A stretch of DNA of 30,721 bases from a virus (Duplodnaviria; Caudoviricetes): IMG/VR virus record IMGVR_UViG_3300044724_001191, positions 1 to 30,721 of that record; one strand, given 5' to 3'. A model generated the notes under the pieces. That model saw only the letters and a list, made by a program, of their open reading frames with translations, made no database searches and was not told where the DNA came from. The first letter of the stretch is position 1. Each line of letters opens with the position of its first letter. The translations under genes were made by a program, and so were the position numbers. This document shows, in pieces, positions 4,651 to 30,661 of this stretch.

Positions 4651-6779
4651 TACAAAACATTTAATAGTTGGAAGGTGGTCTTACCCGTAGTCATATTGAC
4701 GTTAGCACTATTGACAATCCATTTTTGGTTGTTCCAAATAATCTTGTTTTTAAGGTCTAAGCCTACAATCTTTCCAAGCGGTAGGACTGCATCTACATTT
4801 ACAATGCGTCTTTTAGAGTTGTATAGGTCTTCAATGTAATCGCTCCAATAGGTTTGATATAAACTTCTTCCTACAGAGGTTAGATAGTATGGGTCGATGT
4901 CGCTACCCCACGTAAGGGTGTAGGCATTTCCAGTTCCCGTGCTTGTGCTAGAAGTGTTAGCGTACCATACCTCGTTGACTTGGGTTTCTGTATCGGTCTC
5001 ATCTACAAATGAGATGGGGTTTGCGCTAATGTCAAGCGAGAACTCACCGTAAATCAAAATGGGCTTACCTACATATTTCTGAAAACGGTTATCTGCGCTA
5101 GTGTCGGGTTCTACCTTTTGTGATTTGTATGCGAGGATGTTTGTAAGCGTTCCAGCATCTATATCGGTAAGGCGTTCAAACAATGGGCATTCAAACGGTA
5201 GGTCAATTTTAAAATCAGAGCCATCCCAATTAAAGGTGGCATTGAGGTCTCCGTATCCTAGTATGTTGGTTTTTTTATACTGGTATCCTAAAATCTGTTC
5301 CGTGTCTTGGTACTTAAATTCTATTTCTCTAAATAACGGTGGGCGGTTGATTCCTACCTCGTCTACGTTTATATATGAAGTAAGGTCTACATCTGTTCCG
5401 TCATCATACCACCCATCTAGCGTTTGGAGGTTAAACTCCGTTGCACTATTTGGAGTAATTACTAGGTTGTGCATTTTTACAATCCCAGCCACAAAATCTT
5501 TCACTTTGATTTCGGGCATCAATGGGGACATAACCAGTTGAAAAGAGTAGGATGCCGATAGAGATTGGTCTACCTCAAAGCGTTGCGTAACGGTGGTGGC
5601 ATCGTATGCCGTGTAATCCGTTACTTGATAGTTGAATGTTACTGGACTTTGGGGGCGTATCTTTAGTTGTACCTCATCTCCCGCATAAAATCCATATCCT
5701 TCAAAAACGCTTGTGATACTAGATGCGGGGTGGTTATCTTGAATAGCCGTACCTATAAGCTCACCATTTTGGAAAAGACCTAGCTCGTAATCAGCACCCG
5801 CATTTTGTACCGTTATATCTAAATCATAAATGTCGGTGTCTACTACCGTCCACGTCTCGGTGGTAAGGTTGAACTCTGTTCCTCCTCCCGTATTGCGGTT
5901 GAAGTTTATTAGTTGCCAATTAATAGCGGTAGTAGAGTCGTATAGATACCCCTCAAATCTGTGCGCCCACAAATACAATTTATCAAACGTGGAATCCGTC
6001 ATAAAATCCCCCGTGAAGGATATACCGTATTTATGTGCAATCGCATCAAACAATCGCACAACCTTGATAGCTGGCTTTAACTCATTGTACTTCACCCCGT
6101 GTTGGTGTCCAGCGTGTCCCGTTACAAATTGTATATCATCCTCGTGGCGTGGGTCGCTTGAACTTGATACGTTGTACACCCAATTTCGGATTGGGGACAT
6201 AAGGGGATAGAAAACATCTCCAGCTAATAGAGCCTCTTGGTCAAACCCCGATTGGATAGTAGCACCATTGTAGGTGTGGTCGTAGTCGCTTAGGTCTAAA
6301 TCATACAAAAAGTCCTCACCAAACAAATCAGCAAGGCTCACTAAATCCCCAAAAAAAGAAAGCGAATAGGCGTAAGGTTCGTTGTTTTGTATCTGCACAT
6401 TTTCCATCTGCATAACCCCCGTGCGGAAGGGCAATGAGTTTAATTCAATCTTTGCTGCTGGGCGAAGGCGAAAATCAAAGGAGTTGGTAGTTCGTGTTTT
6501 CTCAATAGCTGAGGGTGCGCTATCTAATAGAGCCAATACATTTGAGTCGTTGGTTTCGCTATACTGTGATGCTACTACGGAGGCATCTACATCCATACGG
6601 TAGTAGTGCTTGAGTATCTCGTTATTGTTTGGTGTAGCGGGAACCGTAAACGATTGCGTAAAGTCCGTAAACACCTTAGAGATGTCTTGGACATTCTGAA
6701 CCGATAGGTTGATGCTTATCTCTTCATCTGAGAAAGTGTCTAGGCGGTAATCGCCAATATATAGGTCTACCTTGTTCAT
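4650..6779 (-). CDS. Minor tail protein (tail-tip hub-like)
   Basis: 709 aa, beta-rich, N-terminal DFTQSFTVPATPNNN; in the tail module. Confidence 0.65.
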   Translation of the reverse strand: MNKVDLYIGDYRLDTFSDEEISINLSVQNVQDISKVFTDFTQSFTVPATPNNNEILKHYYRMDVDASVVASQYSETNDSNVLALLDSAPSAIEKTRTTNSFDFRLRPAAKIELNSLPFRTGVMQMENVQIQNNEPYAYSLSFFGDLVSLADLFGEDFLYDLDLSDYDHTYNGATIQSGFDQEALLAGDVFYPLMSPIRNWVYNVSSSSDPRHEDDIQFVTGHAGHQHGVKYNELKPAIKVVRLFDAIAHKYGISFTGDFMTDSTFDKLYLWAHRFEGYLYDSTTAINWQLINFNRNTGGGTEFNLTTETWTVVDTDIYDLDITVQNAGADYELGLFQNGELIGTAIQDNHPASSITSVFEGYGFYAGDEVQLKIRPQSPVTFNYQVTDYTAYDATTVTQRFEVDQSLSASYSFQLVMSPLMPEIKVKDFVAGIVKMHNLVITPNSATEFNLQTLDGWYDDGTDVDLTSYINVDEVGINRPPLFREIEFKYQDTEQILGYQYKKTNILGYGDLNATFNWDGSDFKIDLPFECPLFERLTDIDAGTLTNILAYKSQKVEPDTSADNRFQKYVGKPILIYGEFSLDISANPISFVDETDTETQVNEVWYANTSSTSTGTGNAYTLTWGSDIDPYYLTSVGRSLYQTYWSDYIEDLYNSKRRIVNVDAVLPLGKIVGLDLKNKIIWNNQKWIVNSANVNMTTGKTTFQLLNVL

Positions 6780-7975
6780 CGTAGCATATTGCGTTGGTCA
6801 AAGGCAATATCAAAGCCTAGCGTGTAGTTTATGTTTTTATCGTTTACCTCCTTTTGGTAAGTTACGTTTCCTCGTTGTGGGAAAGCTCCAACCCATTCCC
6901 CATCTAGCAAGATGGCTACTTGCTCACTCATAAGGATATCCTCTACCACATCGGCATACGCCTCTTCAACCCATCCCGTATTCATTGTAATTGTATTGCG
7001 GGAGTTGATATTGAAATCTTGGTATTTAGCTTCTTGGAGATTGGGGGTGGTGAATCCGTCAACGTAAATACTTCGGTTGTATGTTTGGTTGGTGAAAACC
7101 CCTTGCTCTTGGCTACGCTTAAACATCGTTATGTAATCGCTTGCCCCATATCGGTTGACAAAAGCAATTTGGTATGGGGTATATTTAGGCTCGCAAGTAA
7201 TTTCATATTCTTGTTCCCAAATTTTCGTTCCAGCGGGGTTTTTAAAGTAAAGGGTATAGTTTGTTTGCCCACTACGGTTAAGTGGTCGCATAGAGGCTGA
7301 AAAGCCCGTGTATGCGTTTAAGTTAGCCACCCCCGAAGGAAAGTATAAAAGCTTCGCAGTAGTAGAACCCGAAGAAGGGGATATGCCCGTTGAGACTTGA
7401 ATGTCTACATCTTCAAAATCTCCATTAGCCCATTGGATGCCAAAGTATTTTGTATTAATGCTAGAGTCCCAATAGATAGGTAGGGTCTCGTATCCAGTTT
7501 CACTTACAAAACGCTTACGGCTTACTGCCATAGGAGTTGTGGTATGCTCGGAGTTTTGGGTATACTTACGCCATCCATTAGCTACAAAGTTTTTTGTTCC
7601 CGTTGCCCATACCGCAGTAGTTGGTGCTAACCCATTATCTGAGTACGTCCAATCTCCCGAAACCTCTACATACAATACCTCCCCATTAATTGACTGCTCT
7701 ACGCTTGTGGCATCGTAAGTAGCAAAAGAATGTGAAAACTCGGAACGGATTAAATCGGCTATTTCAAAATTGATAACCTCGTTGATGGAGTAGGACTTGG
7801 AAAGCTGATAGTTAAAACTAAGTGGTTCGTCTCCCAATGCCCCAGCCCAAACCTTAATGTTTAGTCTCATACTGTCTAGTGAGTCATTGGCAAGGGCATT
7901 ATTCTTACCAGTAACAAACAAGGGGCTGCGTGCCATCGATAAGGAGGCGGGGGTAGATACTACGGGTGTACTCAT
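6776..7975 (-). CDS. Minor tail protein (distal-tail-like)
   Basis: 399 aa; C-terminal FVNRYG...ITMNTGWV...ILMSEQV domain; ATGA-coupled to its neighbours. Confidence 0.6.
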   Translation of the reverse strand: MSTPVVSTPASLSMARSPLFVTGKNNALANDSLDSMRLNIKVWAGALGDEPLSFNYQLSKSYSINEVINFEIADLIRSEFSHSFATYDATSVEQSINGEVLYVEVSGDWTYSDNGLAPTTAVWATGTKNFVANGWRKYTQNSEHTTTPMAVSRKRFVSETGYETLPIYWDSSINTKYFGIQWANGDFEDVDIQVSTGISPSSGSTTAKLLYFPSGVANLNAYTGFSASMRPLNRSGQTNYTLYFKNPAGTKIWEQEYEITCEPKYTPYQIAFVNRYGASDYITMFKRSQEQGVFTNQTYNRSIYVDGFTTPNLQEAKYQDFNINSRNTITMNTGWVEEAYADVVEDILMSEQVAILLDGEWVGAFPQRGNVTYQKEVNDKNINYTLGFDIAFDQRNMLR

Positions 7976-9809: not shown

Positions 9810-10218
9810 ATTCCAGCCAAACCTTTTTTAGTTCGTCAATGAGTTGCTTCCATCTTTTAGGGGAGCAAGTGCAAGGCTTGTAAGGCTTGTGGTTGAAGAT
9901 GCGTGCGTGAATGGTAGCTATTTGGTCTTGGGCTACGGGGGTCAGCTCGTTAGTGGCGGTGGCGTAGTATTCCGTTAGCCAGTCGTACTCTTCTTTGTTT
10001 AGGCACTCCACACGGCTATACTGGAGTAGCTTGTTTAGCTTTTCCTTTCTTGCCTCACATCCACAATCGATGCCCGTCTTTTCAGCAAACCAATCTACGG
10101 CTGCCTTTATTCCCGTTGCGGTAGTGATTTGCTCTATGGTATCACCAAGCCCTTTCGCCCGCTTCCTTGTACGCTTCGTAGGAGTCTTTGCAGTTTTCAC
10201 GGATTCTTTCTTTTCCAT
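9793..10218 (-). CDS. Hypothetical Cys-containing protein
   Basis: 141 aa with GLGDT...DCGC..RKEKLN and CTC motifs; overlaps the sigma gene 3' end by 77 nt. Confidence 0.7.
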   Translation of the reverse strand: MEKKESVKTAKTPTKRTRKRAKGLGDTIEQITTATGIKAAVDWFAEKTGIDCGCEARKEKLNKLLQYSRVECLNKEEYDWLTEYYATATNELTPVAQDQIATIHARIFNHKPYKPCTCSPKRWKQLIDELKKVWLEYEPQN

Positions 10219-10672
10219 TTTTGATAGTGTTAAAAATTGAACTAAGGGATATTTTGGTTTCCTTAGACAAGTCCCTTATACTCATCTCGGTTTGCATATA
10301 GACGGTAAAAAGTTTTTCATCATACCAATGCCAGCTTTTGACTTCATCCCATATCTTATCTGATAGCTCCATAAGCTCCACCTCTTGGCTGGGGTAATAC
10401 TGCCCGTGTGAGTCTTTGGGGGCTTGGTCTATAAATTCTATTCTCTTTTTTGCTTTTGTGTAATTAACCCACAAATTGCGAAGGGTTACGTAGACAAAAA
10501 AAGTATTGACTTCATCCCCGTACATTATCTTTTCGGGTTCTACCGAGTAGTGGTGCAGACGCAAGTACATCTCTTGTACTATGTCTTCGCATAGGTGTTC
10601 GGGGCATCCAAAGCTGCGTACCATACGTACCCAGTCTTTATGTTTAGTGGCAAGTAGGTCAAGCAGTTCCAT
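10142..10672 (-). CDS. Phage RNA polymerase sigma factor (sigma70/ECF-like)
   Basis: Region 2 motif CEDIVQEMYLRL and region 4 HTH MSIRDLSKETKISLSSIFNTIK; likely ATG start at 10672. Confidence 0.85.
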   Translation of the reverse strand: MELLDLLATKHKDWVRMVRSFGCPEHLCEDIVQEMYLRLHHYSVEPEKIMYGDEVNTFFVYVTLRNLWVNYTKAKKRIEFIDQAPKDSHGQYYPSQEVELMELSDKIWDEVKSWHWYDEKLFTVYMQTEMSIRDLSKETKISLSSIFNTIKNGKERIRENCKDSYEAYKEAGERAW

Positions 10673-10697: not shown

Positions 10698-10730
10698 AAA
10701 AAAAGAGCCACCCCAAAAAAGGATGGCTCT
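10698..10730 (-). terminator. Intrinsic terminator downstream of terL
   Basis: AGAGCCATCC-loop-GGGTGGCTCT followed by a T run on the minus strand. Confidence 0.8.
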
Positions 10731-10776
10731 GCCGTGCTAAATGTTCAACCAAAACTCACTAATAGCGCAGCACGGC
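10731..10776 (-). ncRNA. Candidate antisense stem-loop RNA 1 (terL 3' UTR)
   Basis: 8-bp stem GCCGUGCU/AGCACGGC; loop contains UUAGUGAGUUUUGGUU, complementary to the leader at 14866-14883. Confidence 0.55.
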
Positions 10777-11934
10777 TTATCGTATAGCGTATCGCCCGTA
10801 GTTGGGGCGGGAAAGTCGGTTAAAGGTAGCGTATCTCGTTGCATCCACCAAATGGTTGAAAGCATCGATAGGACGGTTTAGGAGGTTTCCGTTTTTATCC
10901 TCTTGCCATTTATAGTTTTGCAGTTCCTTCGTTAGGTTATGGCTACCCTTGACGATGTGCAGCTTATGGCGTTTGAGGATGTCTATGCCAGCCATTACGG
11001 AGTCAGCACCTTTGGCGGTGGGTTTCACATTCCATCCCATCCTATGCAGTTCCTCAATACTCTTTGGTTCTGCTGAGTCTGCCCATATCTCATCGTACCT
11101 AGTCATTCCCATTTCCGTTAGCTTTTGGCTAATGTCTGAGTTGGTTAGGTTTGTGTGGTATAGCTTTTCCTCTAGGTATAGACTATCCCCGTCCTTGTAC
11201 ACCTTAACGATTGCAGTAGGGTCATTGGTAAAACCAAAGTCTAGCCCATAGGCTACCACTTGCCCTTTGGGTTCGTCTGCCATAGCAAACTGAAAAATGG
11301 TAGCCCTTGATATACCACGCTCACCCAAGCCATAGATTCTCCAGTAATCCTCATCCGTACCTTTTAGCCTTTCTATTTCGTCTACTATGGTTTGGGATAG
11401 GAAGGGGTTATCCTTGTAGGTGGACTGAATGTATGTTACATCATCCCGTGTTAGGAGTCTGTCATAAATCCAATGGAACGAATCCGAAGGGTTGTAGTCA
11501 ATGTAGATTTTGTCCGTTGTTCTAACAAGGAGCTGGAAAAAGTCCTCCCACGTTAATTCGTTGGCTTCGTTGCAGAAAAGGAAATCACGCCTAGCACCCC
11601 TTTTCTTTTGTGGTTGGTCAAGGCTAATGAACTCAAAGAGGTTTCCGTTTAGGTTGTAGGTGTAGTCGCTTTTGTTATGGTTCTTTTCATCGTAGATTCC
11701 TAGATTGTTTAGTATCTCTAAGAAATCCCGATAGGCGGTCATTTTAAGCGATGGGAGCGACTTTCTAACTATCGAGTATACCTTACCCCTTGTTTGGTAA
11801 GATTTGACAATAAGAAGCTGCAAGAGGGAGTAGGTCTTACCGCTACGAGTTCCCCCTTGATTGATTATTATTTTGGTATCGGCATCCCAGTTTTTTTCAA
11901 AGACGGGGCCGTAGTTAATCTCTAGGCTTGACAA
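10777..11934 (-). CDS. terL: Terminase large subunit (PBSX/SPP1-like)
   Basis: Walker A QGGTRSGKT, Walker B region FCNEANE, nuclease motifs GLDFGFTNDP, ADSAEP and NHLVDATRY. Confidence 0.95.
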   Translation of the reverse strand: MSSLEINYGPVFEKNWDADTKIIINQGGTRSGKTYSLLQLLIVKSYQTRGKVYSIVRKSLPSLKMTAYRDFLEILNNLGIYDEKNHNKSDYTYNLNGNLFEFISLDQPQKKRGARRDFLFCNEANELTWEDFFQLLVRTTDKIYIDYNPSDSFHWIYDRLLTRDDVTYIQSTYKDNPFLSQTIVDEIERLKGTDEDYWRIYGLGERGISRATIFQFAMADEPKGQVVAYGLDFGFTNDPTAIVKVYKDGDSLYLEEKLYHTNLTNSDISQKLTEMGMTRYDEIWADSAEPKSIEELHRMGWNVKPTAKGADSVMAGIDILKRHKLHIVKGSHNLTKELQNYKWQEDKNGNLLNRPIDAFNHLVDATRYATFNRLSRPNYGRYAIR

Positions 11935-12230: not shown

Positions 12231-12482
12231 TTATGGAAATAACTTCCTTTCGTGAATGTGTTTAAGCCACTCCTTGTGATGCTTGACATCTCCGTAGCGG
12301 ACGTGGCAATCTCTACATAGAGCCATTAGGTTTTCAATCGTATCTCGCTCGTTACTTCCTCCCATCCCTCTGGCTTCTATATGGTGAATGTCTACCGCTT
12401 GTTTGTTGCACACCTCGCAAGGTATCCAATCGGTGGTATCATACCCCATCCCTTGCAAATATACTTTGGTATGCTTCTTCAT
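12231..12482 (-). CDS. HNH endonuclease (terminase-associated)
   Basis: CEVC...DIHHI...NLMALCRDCH. Confidence 0.9.
   Translation of the reverse strand: MKKHTKVYLQGMGYDTTDWIPCEVCNKQAVDIHHIEARGMGGSNERDTIENLMALCRDCHVRYGDVKHHKEWLKHIHERKLFP
12237..12261 (-). promoter_or_regulatory. Putative late promoter (ACAC-N14-GTTATTT)
   Basis: About 20 nt upstream of the terS ATG. Confidence 0.45.
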
Positions 12483-13665: not shown

Positions 13666-13726
13666 GGGTTGGAGGGGGCGGGGAAAAGTCAAAACCAAAT
13701 AACAAATGAATAGCCCCCTCCTTCCC
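13666..13726 (-). ncRNA. Candidate antisense stem-loop RNA 2
   Basis: 9-bp stem GGAGGGGGC/GCCCCCUCC with a 33-nt loop containing UUCAUUUGUUAUUUGGUUUU; begins just after the stop at 13729. Confidence 0.5.
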
Positions 13727-14630: not shown

Positions 14631-14758
14631 CGGTCAAGGTCGTTATAGTCCTCGTAGTCGCAGTCATTACAGATACCGTGATAGTTTAATACCGCATAGC
14701 AGTAGTCGCATCTATCGGGTGCATCATAAGGGTCGATAGCCCCAAACTCAGAACACAT
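14627..14758 (-). CDS. Small acidic zinc-ribbon protein (43 aa), not in the ORF track
   Basis: MCSEFGAIDPYDAPDRCDYCYAVLNYHGICNDCDYEDYNDLDR; two CxxC motifs; ATGA-coupled downstream. Confidence 0.65.
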   Translation of the reverse strand: MCSEFGAIDPYDAPDRCDYCYAVLNYHGICNDCDYEDYNDLDR

Positions 14759-14864
14759 AGGTCAAAGCTTTAAGAATTACAAAAGGGGTTAGGAGGGTAA
14801 GAATTACCCAAGCGATACCAAAGGCATAAGCCTTGTAGTCATCTAGAGATTTTGGTTTTTTCAC
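14748..14864 (-). CDS. Small membrane protein (38 aa), first gene after a host-type promoter, not in the ORF track
   Basis: GTG start; MKKPKSLDDYKAYAFGIAWVILTLLTPFVILKALTYVF has one hydrophobic segment. Confidence 0.6.
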   Translation of the reverse strand: MKKPKSLDDYKAYAFGIAWVILTLLTPFVILKALTYVF

Positions 14865-14887
14865 TTTAGTGAGTGTTTTGGTTTACT

Positions 14888-14918
14888 CAAATATACACAC
14901 TTTCTACAATAAAGCAAA
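14888..14918 (-). promoter_or_regulatory. Bacteroidota primary-sigma promoter (TTTG-N19-TATATTTG)
   Basis: Exact -33 TTTG and -7 TAnnTTTG consensus, intergenic, just after a terminator. Confidence 0.8.
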
Positions 14919-15559: not shown

Positions 15560-15925
15560 TTACAGTTGCTTTAGATGCTCTTCCAATAGAGATAACTTGA
15601 TTTTAATTTCTTGTATCGCCTCCCTTAGGTCTTTGGAAGTTATAAGGGGGATGTTAATCTTTTCCTTGTAGGCAGTTCGTGTGGCTTGGTACACATCCTT
15701 GTAGTATGACAAATCCATATCTCGGTAGTGTGTCTGCCAGTAGTGGCAAATGGTACTGTGCTTTCTACCTATGCTTCTTCCTAGCTCCACCGTTGTATAG
15801 TTATTACGAAGGGCGTTTACTACCGCCTTGCGTGCTAGGTTATTCATCATTGTCCTATCCTTGCTCTTTAGGTCTACCTCAAAAGAGGTTTCTATTTCGT
15901 GTAAGACTTCCGTTAAAATGCTCAT
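15560..15925 (-). CDS. DnaA C-terminal (domain IV)-like HTH protein
   Basis: ARKAVVNALR...TTVELGRSIGRKHSTICHY resembles the DnaA signature IG..FGGRDHTTV.H. Confidence 0.7.
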   Translation of the reverse strand: MSILTEVLHEIETSFEVDLKSKDRTMMNNLARKAVVNALRNNYTTVELGRSIGRKHSTICHYWQTHYRDMDLSYYKDVYQATRTAYKEKINIPLITSKDLREAIQEIKIKLSLLEEHLKQL

Positions 15926-16221
15926 TTGTAATATCCGTTTTGGTTAAGTGTGGTAAATTTAATCTTTTCTTCCCTAAGGGCATTGTCTAGGTATTCACCG
16001 CTTACCTCGAACTTCTTTTGGTTTCTGATATTCTCCAGTACATAGTAGCGATAGTGAATATGTTTTGGGTCTCGGCTTTCATCGCACCACTTCATCCACC
16101 CAAGCTCTGTGCATTTCTTACAGAACGTCCATTGGTATTGAATGACCCTAAATACATCTTTTGTATCCTTGTTCAGTAGGAGGTCTCCCTCCCGTGTTTG
16201 GGCTATTGGCTTTGGGCGCAT
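15922..16221 (-). CDS. Hypothetical protein (99 aa)
   Basis: Overlaps both neighbours; contains CKKC. Confidence 0.6.
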   Translation of the reverse strand: MRPKPIAQTREGDLLLNKDTKDVFRVIQYQWTFCKKCTELGWMKWCDESRDPKHIHYRYYVLENIRNQKKFEVSGEYLDNALREEKIKFTTLNQNGYYK

Positions 16222-17475: not shown

Positions 17476-17910
17476 TTAAAATGGACTTTCTTCGCTGAAG
17501 TGGTCTTGGTGGCTACGTCCCTTTGGAGCTTCGCCAGTTACTACCCATAGGTATTCCTCTACAAAGCTAGGGATAGACTTGATGTCCATCTTGCCAGCAG
17601 CAATAAGGTCTACCGCACCCTTGAATACTACGCTACGAGCAATCTGTTGGCTTTGGTCTTTGCCAGCAGGCTTAGGGGTGTACTGCTTCTGTGCAGAATA
17701 TCCCGTGCTTGGTGTTCCAGCATATTCGGGCTTCTGAAGCTTAAGCGTTCCTTTGTCATTGATTTCGTGAGCTACTTCGTCTCCGATACCAAAGCGCAGA
17801 GATTCTGTCTTTGCAAATACGGTTCCCGTTACTCCATTGTCTAGGCTGACCTCAAATTTGAAAAGGTCTCGCCAGTTGCCCGAAGGCTGAATGCTTGTGA
17901 TTTTAGCCAT
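17476..17910 (-). CDS. Putative single-stranded DNA-binding protein
   Basis: Beta-rich OB-like N-terminus and acidic C-terminal tail ending FSEESPF; likely start at 17910. Confidence 0.65.
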   Translation of the reverse strand: MAKITSIQPSGNWRDLFKFEVSLDNGVTGTVFAKTESLRFGIGDEVAHEINDKGTLKLQKPEYAGTPSTGYSAQKQYTPKPAGKDQSQQIARSVVFKGAVDLIAAGKMDIKSIPSFVEEYLWVVTGEAPKGRSHQDHFSEESPF

Positions 17911-18091
17911 TAGTGAAAAGTTTAGAGTTAATAAAATCCATCGTGTCTTGCTGGGCTTGGCTGAATAGCTCAGCATCGTTTAGAGCTGCATCACGCAAAT
18001 ACTCCAAAGTCTTTACCCTATCCTCTAGGGCTTTAATTCGTGCATCCTTGTAAGCTACAAGTTGCTGCCATTGTACTTCTGATAGTGCCAT
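17903..18091 (-). CDS. Hypothetical coiled-coil protein (62 aa)
   Basis: MALSEVQWQQLVAYKDARIKALEDRV...; first gene after a host-type promoter. Confidence 0.7.
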   Translation of the reverse strand: MALSEVQWQQLVAYKDARIKALEDRVKTLEYLRDAALNDAELFSQAQQDTMDFINSKLFTNG

Positions 18092-18112
18092 TATTTTAGT
18101 TTTGGTTACACC

Positions 18113-18142
18113 CAAAGGTAAACAAAAAAACTAAACGGCAAA
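18113..18142 (-). promoter_or_regulatory. Bacteroidota primary-sigma promoter (TTTG-N18-TACCTTTG)
   Basis: Exact -7 TAnnTTTG with upstream TTTG in an intergenic gap. Confidence 0.75.
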
Positions 18143-18950: not shown

Positions 18951-19068
18951 AGTGGTCTCCGTTATTTCCGTTCTGCAAGATAGCACGCATTCTCCGTTCT
19001 GCTACTAACTCTTCTTCATCTGTGTAGTCTTCGTAATCATCCCAATACAAAAACCTAAACTTACCCAT
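18934..19068 (-). CDS. Small acidic protein (44 aa), not in the ORF track
   Basis: MGKFRFLYWDDYEDYTDEEELVAERRMRAILQNGNNGDHYEQDP. Confidence 0.55.
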   Translation of the reverse strand: MGKFRFLYWDDYEDYTDEEELVAERRMRAILQNGNNGDHYEQDP

Positions 19069-19253
19069 ACTTACTCTTAGTTTACTTAGTTACTTACTAA
19101 CTTACTTACTTAGGTACTAAGTTACTTACTTACTAAGTAATATATACTAAGTAATACTAAGTAACCAAATAACTAAGTATCTTACCCCCCTTATATTCCC
19201 CCCTTTCTTAAATCTTGCTTCTAAGGGCTTTTCTCAATGCAAGATGGGTAAGT
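19059..19253. other. Putative replication origin (TTAC/ACTAAGT repeat tract)
   Basis: Largest non-coding region; AT-rich ACTT/TTAC tandem units on the left, ACTAAGTA units on the right, C-runs, and a flanking 10-bp inverted repeat; precedes the replication genes. Confidence 0.55.
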
Positions 19254-19299
19254 ACACCACCTAAGGGGTATACATAGCTTAAAACGGCTGTAAATAGCC

Positions 19300-28586: not shown

Positions 28587-28611
28587 AAATAACTACCTTT
28601 TTGCTTTTTGT
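28587..28611 (-). promoter_or_regulatory. Putative late promoter (ACAA-N14-GTTATTT)
   Basis: Intergenic, between a terminator and the portal operon start. Confidence 0.55.
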
Positions 28612-30238: not shown

Positions 30239-30661
30239 TTAAACAAATTTTTCAGCTCTATTGAGCAAGTCATTAAGTTTCGCTAGAATGTTCTCGCCTT
30301 GACGGGCAGCGTTACTCACGGCTTCCCAGTTAGGATTGTCTTGGTAATCGATTCCCAGCTCTTCGGCAGCACTTTGAAAATCTGCTTGCACTCTAAGGCC
30401 TTCGTCTACCGTCTCTTCGATTTGGTCTAGCATATTCTGTGCGTTCTGCACCTCTTGTTCTAGTACGCTTGCAGCGTTCTCAATGATACTCAAAGTATCG
30501 TCAAGGTCAGCCTCTACATTTAAAGCCTCACTAGTAAGGCTATCCAGTCGCTCACGCACATCCTCTAGGTCTCCGCTAAGAGACAAAGCAATTTTACGTC
30601 CAGCACGGTTGTTCTCCGCTTTGAACATCATATTGTAAATGCGTTGAGTGCTTTTTTTCAT
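30239..30661 (-). CDS. Acidic helical protein, head-module paralog 3 (putative capsid-internal cargo)
   Basis: 140 aa; leader ending RKIALS, AEELGIDY motif; immediately before the capsid gene. Confidence 0.7.
   Translation of the reverse strand: MKKSTQRIYNMMFKAENNRAGRKIALSLSGDLEDVRERLDSLTSEALNVEADLDDTLSIIENAASVLEQEVQNAQNMLDQIEETVDEGLRVQADFQSAAEELGIDYQDNPNWEAVSNAARQGENILAKLNDLLNRAEKFV

Follow-up and report, generated by a model that had tools for sequence, protein, structure and literature searches.

CarZ and OppZ of Vibrio cholerae are described in PMC7398697 as autoregulatory small RNAs derived from 3′ untranslated regions (3′ UTRs). In the icaR message of Staphylococcus aureus, a motif in the 3′ UTR base-pairs with the region where translation of that message starts (PMC3868564), and the c4 antisense RNA of phages P1 and P7 acts near the ribosome-binding site of a message of its own phage (PMC12197685). 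GibS, a small RNA of Bacteroides thetaiotaomicron, is described as repressing at start regions without a Shine-Dalgarno sequence or Hfq, and the same source reports no obvious Hfq or ProQ in Bacteroides and a host group that lacks Hfq (PMC7366714).

Here we describe a stem-loop, hairpin A, which lies behind the terminase large subunit gene (terL) of a single contig of 30,721 nucleotides from an uncultured phage (the window, that is, the whole stretch of DNA analysed) and whose loop is antisense to leaders of early genes. As with CarZ and OppZ, its position is between the stop codon of the last gene and an intrinsic terminator. The property that defines those two RNAs, pairing with the start of their own operon, is predicted here for the leader behind promoter P1, and both read-through from P1 and a late promoter are possible sources of the RNA. 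In departure from what PMC7398697 describes, hairpin A is encoded by a phage, carries its seed in a large loop and offers this one loop to the leaders of two operons; its guide has altered along with the targets from clade to clade, and the module has shifted among three sites. RNAs of the CarZ/OppZ type are also Hfq-dependent, are cleaved out by an endonuclease as stable RNAs and repress in a way demonstrated with compensatory mutants, whereas the group of the inferred phage host is reported to be without Hfq (PMC7366714). The icaR motif pairs with a Shine-Dalgarno sequence (PMC3868564), but the leaders considered here have none, the loop also matches a second transcript, and 4.1 kb must be bridged. 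With GibS, hairpin A shares a long single-stranded seed over start regions devoid of a Shine-Dalgarno sequence, and the inferred host belongs to the same phylum; GibS, unlike hairpin A, is presented in PMC7366714 as a host metabolic small RNA that has a promoter of its own and a seed in an unstructured 5′ part.

The likeness to c4, as described in PMC12197685, consists in loop-displayed, imperfect complements to a message of the phage itself and in sequence differences that set specificity between relatives. The differences are that hairpin A is a single hairpin within a 3′ UTR, that the window has no Rfam match at the gathering score (nor, between 10500 and 15200, any up to an E-value of 5), that there is no sign of lysogeny genes among the proteins scanned, and that the predicted targets are two early leaders, before genes of 38 and 62 amino acids, in place of an antirepressor message; no antirepressor was found among the 19 proteins scanned in PHROGs, the 62-aa protein and other open reading frames (ORFs) lying outside that scan. 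Loop-displayed complements to the phage's own message, which characterize c4 and presumably also the CI RNA of phage P4, named beside it here as a comparable phage antisense RNA, are found by prediction and by covariation. The antitoxin of a type I toxin-antitoxin system has one dedicated target, which encodes a small hydrophobic toxin. This identity was considered and rejected: the first gene behind P1 does encode a small hydrophobic protein, but the loop fits the leader behind a second promoter, P2, equally well, and relatives have other first genes behind matching leaders. In its modelled action hairpin A is like CarZ and c4, yet it fits no Rfam family. In the literature searched, which covered the supplement of PMC10690425 in part, we met no account of phage hairpins whose loops are antisense to leaders shared by early genes. 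None of six loop motifs occurs in six supplementary files of that paper; three further files, including two large archives that perhaps hold alignments, lay outside the search, and it is possible that the hairpin is already catalogued in these archives as an unannotated candidate RNA.

Hairpin A and the leaders of two predicted early promoters

Every long ORF of the window is on the minus strand, and the PHROGs scan of 19 proteins named a terminase large subunit, HNH, exonuclease VIII, helicase, RusA and endolysin. The terL gene (10777..11922; PHROG 2, E 1e-40) ends in a TAA codon (10779-10777) that stands directly before the stem of hairpin A (10731..10776). The arms of the hairpin (10776-10769 and 10738-10731; this and all genes and elements given below are on the minus strand) form an 8-bp GC-rich stem around a 30-nt loop (10768-10739), hereafter loop A, and an intrinsic terminator abuts it (10698..10730, with its stem at 10730-10704 followed by a U run), which marks the predicted 3′ end of the RNA. 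An earlier note on this DNA had read such a layout of stem, loop of roughly 30 nt and terminator right behind the terL stop, and all of its elements are present. Hairpin and terminator together fold at -36.5 kcal/mol (z -4.4; 1 of 200 shuffles equally stable), and in the prediction the loop is partly closed by two weak 4-bp hairpins, whose opening takes 3.8-4.9 kcal/mol. Of the sequence words, 7% were present in one metatranscriptome run, the contigs of which derive from relatives; three of these contigs end at 10768-10769, and contigs show neither RNA ends nor levels. Summed contig depth is high near hairpin A and near a second hairpin described below, in contigs of one study that likewise do not give RNA levels.

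The gene that follows the terminator (10142..10672) is sigma-factor-like, with a weak Sigma70_r2 match below the cut-off and homologues that a source names as sigma24/sigma-70 family. It comes next after the terminator in nine of the ten relatives with hairpin A, the tenth contig ending within the loop. This gene is found behind terL in the window's clade and, in other relatives, upstream among the early genes.

A -7 box of the form TAnnTTTG accompanied by TTG at -33 occurs at only two coding-strand sites among 11 boxes, 14895 (P1) and 18120 (P2). This combination is the Bacteroidota promoter type, and the G-5 spacing reported for it in PMC6847099 places the predicted transcription starts at 14883 (P1) and 18108 (P2). 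From the promoter type, the phage host is probably a member of the Bacteroidota; the nearest genome matches of terL, among four loci, include a Bacteroidales bin (55%) and a Flavobacterium contig (45%), and no close prophage or isolate was found in the terL genome search or with the exonuclease, which reaches at most 31% in GenBank phages. The P1 element (14865..14895) comprises the -7 box (14895-14888) and a leader of about 19 nt, followed by a gene with a GTG start (14748..14864) for a hydrophobic protein of 38 amino acids, which has no assigned function and no match in PHROG or Pfam. The P2 element (18085..18120) comprises the -7 box (18120-18113), the leader and the ATG (18091) of the 62-aa gene. 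Read directly, neither leader contains a Shine-Dalgarno sequence.

The loop segment 10762-10747 pairs with the P1 leader at 14883-14866 over 16 nt with one 2-nt bulge, GTG standing at 14864, and the core motif AACCAAAAC recurs at 18107, 15945 and 14883; both had been proposed in the earlier note and hold. A fourth copy, absent from that note, lies within a coding region at 2125, and the four sense copies observed compare with 0.6 expected. Predicted duplexes of loop A reach -22.7 kcal/mol with the P1 leader, where they span +1 into the GUG, and -21.8 kcal/mol with the P2 leader, where the same seed is followed by the 5′ part of the loop lying over the AUG, so that the pairing is wider than first described. 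None of 1000 dinucleotide shuffles of the P1 target paired as strongly, nor did any of 1000 for P2, and shuffling of the loop gave equal strength once in 1000 for P1, never in 1000 for P2 and never in 3000 for the summed energy. When position was disregarded, 9 of 200 shuffled loops aligned equally well somewhere in the window; since this best match is only marginal, the evidential force comes from where the matches lie. In an accessibility-aware ranking of 52 gene starts (mean net energy -5.5, sd 3.7), the first gene of P1 (-15.9), the first gene of P2 (-15.5) and an ssb-like gene (-15.0) took ranks 1 to 3; two of the start coordinates used were off by 1 and 3 nt, with their windows still including the sites. 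A genome-wide window scan placed the ssb site first and P1 second. Targets did not stand out from noise when the entire loop was simply scanned for duplexes along complete loci; accessibility and start-site windows were needed.

The idea that the loop is directed against the phage's own early messages is thus upheld by rank (1 and 2 of 52), by shuffles (at most 1 in 1000 pairing as well) and by the conservation and covariation described below. The same is not true of the DnaA-like gene that had been named as a further target: the AACCAAAAC copy before this gene (15925..15945), which has a weak DnaA-type helix-turn-helix match, lies inside an upstream ORF, pairs at -17.4 kcal/mol with 5 of 1000 target shuffles as strong, and ranks 7 of 52, and is a weak candidate. 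The start region of the ssb-like gene (17899..17935; ATG at 17910), a label that reflects position and sequence in a gene without a family match, was considered as a third target and rejected, its strong pairing in the window (-21.0) being lost in the closest relative, L015 (-14.4).

Candidate guides and leaders in related phages

Among 80 terL loci, 73 show the stop codon; hairpin A follows in 10 of the 73, 61 continue straight into the next structural gene, and 2 have an inserted promoter and gene. An exact 15-mer scan of viral contigs with the loop returned 117 stretches, nearly all of them chance coding matches, and the true hairpins were all from the window's clade. In all six aligned copies of hairpin A the stem and the pairing segment are unchanged while the flanks vary; with the stem invariant, these six sequences contain no compensatory stem changes. 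Loop A pairs at -22.7 to -23.6 kcal/mol with leaders of its own class, at -20.2 with the nearest class and at -7.6 to -12.2 with ten other leaders. Eleven distinct leaders of the clade (four P1 and seven P2 variants) pair at -21.0 to -24.4, a conservation that is partly built in, as the search pattern for this set required an AACCAAA seed. The changes among these leaders fall in bulges or yield G-U pairs at four loop positions, a pattern that points to recognition between RNAs and not at the DNA level. In sequences that show the P1 leader together with the end of terL, hairpin A accompanies the window's leader class in the window and in L017, and end-to-end overlaps of 100% identity add two joined pairs (L200 with L013, L203 with L012); it is absent from 21 rows (11 types, repeats merged by eye) that have other leaders and a visible terL end. 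L204, which has the window's leader class, joins terS/terL-side DNA of genomes without hairpin A, and may be an exception to the link.

Similar stem-loops occur in relatives at three sites, after terL, behind the exonuclease gene (site B) and after ssb (site C). Long loops closed by GC-rich stems were searched for on the coding strand of 86 sequences, which gave 94 distinct hairpins with loops biased in orientation (TGGTT in 16 of the 94, AACCA in 4). Most of them lie at site B, a hypervariable position behind the exonuclease gene and a small ORF, where zero to two modules with differing arms and loops are present and near-identical modules recur in different genome backgrounds; loops similar to loop A, set in another stem, are found in L213, L214 and L292. 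In genomes without the window's leader class, site-B loops fit their own P1 leader better than permuted leaders (p 0.004 for 8 units with a unique leader and loop; p 0.0007 for 15 units), with clear exceptions in L008/L293 and L240, whose loops, like those of the window, L204 and L284, fit other classes better than their own P1 leader. Site B of the close relatives L046, L048, L050 and L209-L212 has no hairpin. At the same site, L199 (~6910-6950) and L206 (~6180-6220) carry another type of hairpin, whose loop is without the TTGGTT seed and pairs with none of the leaders tested.

The window's own site-B hairpin, hairpin B (13671..13721), has a 9-bp stem and a 33-nt loop behind the exonuclease gene and a small ORF. 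It fits the leader class of L062 and L219, and its loop is identical to that of L062, where it pairs with that genome's own leader at -18.8 kcal/mol. Against relatives' leaders it reaches -18.8 and -19.4, versus -11 with the window's P1 and P2, and it has no strong target of its own among the 52 gene starts (best net energy -10.3). AAAGTGTAA motifs recur at 13660-13595 and 13370-13340, together with a leader (ACCTTTAACACCAAAGAG..ATG) that is likewise repeated, before small variable genes; in relatives this repeat fronts many exchangeable gene cassettes.

Relatives with the ssb site were collected via the helicase (best 80 of 595). The hairpin at this site lies between the ssb stop and its terminator, a layout like that of hairpin A. 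Three clades have three motifs, each common to the early leaders of its clade (in the distant clades the motif is found alike in the P1, P2 and helicase leaders), and each clade's loop is complementary to its motif. Among loci with a promoter-linked motif, the own motif is present in antisense within 170 nt before the helicase in 10 of 12, 4 of 4 and 22 of 22, that is, in 36 of 38 ssb-site loci, and a foreign clade's motif in none of the 38; these counts are from the best 80 of 595 relatives and are inflated by near-copies. In L340 and L345, a tRNA-like 3′ end stands just before the helicase, where clade mates have the anti-leader hairpin. In seven loci (L320, L325, L339, L343, L350, L352 and L356), the interval just before the helicase that runs from the upstream stop codon to the terminator contains a U/G-rich segment; it has no clear stem and may be an unstructured form of the same guide.

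With one genome from each of six leader classes, the best partner was the own P1 leader in six of six cases (mean -18.8 versus -8.5 kcal/mol; 1 of 720 permutations), and a nine-genome permutation test of own leaders gave 4 of 362,880, the genomes of both tests having been hand-picked after the matches were seen. In a helicase tree of 23 rows each class has a branch of its own, in most cases well supported, which indicates that guide and target changed together several times. Because the stems are out of register, both in a set of 13 ssb-site hairpins for which RNAalifold gave no consensus and in a mixed alignment of hairpins A and B, we make no formal claim of stem covariation; the hairpins of relatives directly show arms that differ in sequence, each with a partner arm to match. 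The checks of conservation and loop/leader covariation put forward in the earlier note therefore came out favourably, through the fit to own leaders across classes. On comparative sequence evidence, which supports it strongly, the complementarity of loop and leaders is real and selected.

A predicted antisense switch and its alternatives

We consider it likely that hairpin A is an antisense RNA that pairs with both early leaders, blocks their translation and so switches early expression down; antisense occlusion of the start regions of early messages would be the simplest account of the data. The 3′ part of loop A is predicted to seed on AACCAAAA, shared by the leaders, at +1, after which the rest of the P1 leader, up to the GUG, would be bound by the middle of the loop and the start codon of P2 by its 5′ part, the segments being separated by variable bulges. 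The stem would display the loop and the terminator would provide a stable 3′ end, either for the full-length transcript or for a 3′ fragment processed from it. Action in trans would be required for P2, as its leader is on another transcript. Adenines at -3 and -6 promote initiation in Flavobacterium (PMC6847099), and the predicted duplexes include these positions or border on them. Behind P1, the stop codon of many genes overlaps a neighbour's start codon, so that blocking the first gene could be polar. The promoters, the start sites, the RNA itself, its action in trans, repression and timing enter this model as predictions.

With regard to timing, a AGTTATTT motif at the HNH-terS boundary (12236..12244), present at 43 of 74 distinct HNH gene ends and found before three structural genes as well as before terS, may be a late promoter, perhaps serving the sigma-like product of the gene that follows the terminator, in which case hairpin A would be a late brake. 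Late expression, as the earlier note had it, is plausible. Read-through from the targeted P1 operon is equally possible, since a scan found no strong terminator between P1 and terL/hairpin A, and negative feedback from the operon's own 3′ end, as in CarZ, is as likely as a late brake; sites B and C, which hold the equivalent hairpins in relatives, lie in early transcripts. An (A/G)GTTATTT motif, likewise a putative late promoter, occurs at 28594, 25937, 12244 and 9792, before terS and structural genes, and in L004 and L076 after the terminator of an inserted cassette.

To our knowledge, little is known of how small phages without an obvious repressor shut off early genes transcribed by the host polymerase, and we know of very few base-pairing RNAs with described targets in Bacteroidota or their phages. 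If the antisense model is right, one loop that serves all early leaders, is re-fitted in each clade and can be moved between sites would constitute a compact, protein-free switch, and would provide an explanation of why leader motifs differ by clade in these phages. Natural compensatory variants of it are already in hand, and the guide-leader pairs would be ready orthogonal gene control for hosts without Shine-Dalgarno sequences or Hfq.

A possible elaboration, to which we assign a low probability, is that the guides are modular and exchangeable, one acting as a master off-switch on the phage's own early leaders and extras such as hairpin B targeting co-infecting relatives. Hairpin B of the window would be either a passenger made redundant by hairpin A or an RNA that acts on co-infecting relatives, and action on relatives suits it better than it suits hairpin A. 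If such a division of roles exists, leader and loop would form an RNA-encoded compatibility code in phage-phage competition, driving rapid divergence of early leaders.

It is unlikely that hairpin A works only in cis, with the 3′ end of the message folding onto its own 5′ leader to limit translation or lifetime and no separate small RNA. Hairpin A does end the unit that starts at P1, with no strong terminator found between, the ssb-site hairpin ends a short P2 operon about 600 nt from its matching leader, and icaR is a precedent (PMC3868564); but the 4.1 kb to be spanned in the window, the equal fit of loop A to the P2 leader of a different transcript, start codon included, and the distant clades, where just one of the three leaders with the motif is in cis, all speak against it. 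Still less probable is that the hairpins serve as exchangeable antisense cassettes directed chiefly against early messages of co-infecting relatives, in exclusion or competition, with self-pairing secondary. The presence of zero to two hairpins at site B, the near-identical modules across genome backgrounds and the preference of hairpin B, and alike of those of L204 and L284, for relatives' leaders would suit such a role, but hairpin A and the ssb-site hairpins match their own genomes, and most mismatched site-B modules occur in genomes whose own leader is covered by hairpin A, as redundant passengers remaining after recombination would be expected to do.

That a phage protein, for example the product of the helix-turn-helix gene, instead uses AACCAAAAC as its DNA operator, and that the copy behind terL is an inverted DNA site, seems very improbable: AACCAAAAC overlaps both predicted transcription starts and just precedes the helix-turn-helix gene, but the match runs past the core with variable spacing and G-U-only changes, the extra copy is antisense and enclosed in a stem in every clade, and it is set against a terminator. 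The loop could also be a functionless inverted copy of the leader or a chance match of a U/G-rich loop to A/C-rich leaders, in keeping with the marginal position-free match and the 61 of 73 terL loci that continue without a hairpin, but this is just as improbable in view of the failure of composition-preserving shuffles of both partners, the fit of one loop to two different leaders, the matched loops kept in 36 of 38 distant loci (best 80 of 595 relatives) and the pairing segment unchanged in six of six aligned copies amid varying flanks.

Other features of the window

Between the lysis and early genes, at 19000-19290, lies a long non-coding AT-rich stretch with many TACTTAG/AGTAAG repeats, possibly a replication origin. 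Three similar small acidic genes with like N-termini (86-574, 576-1016 and 30239-30661) lie between scaffold-like and capsid-like genes, and their products are probably coiled-coil proteins.
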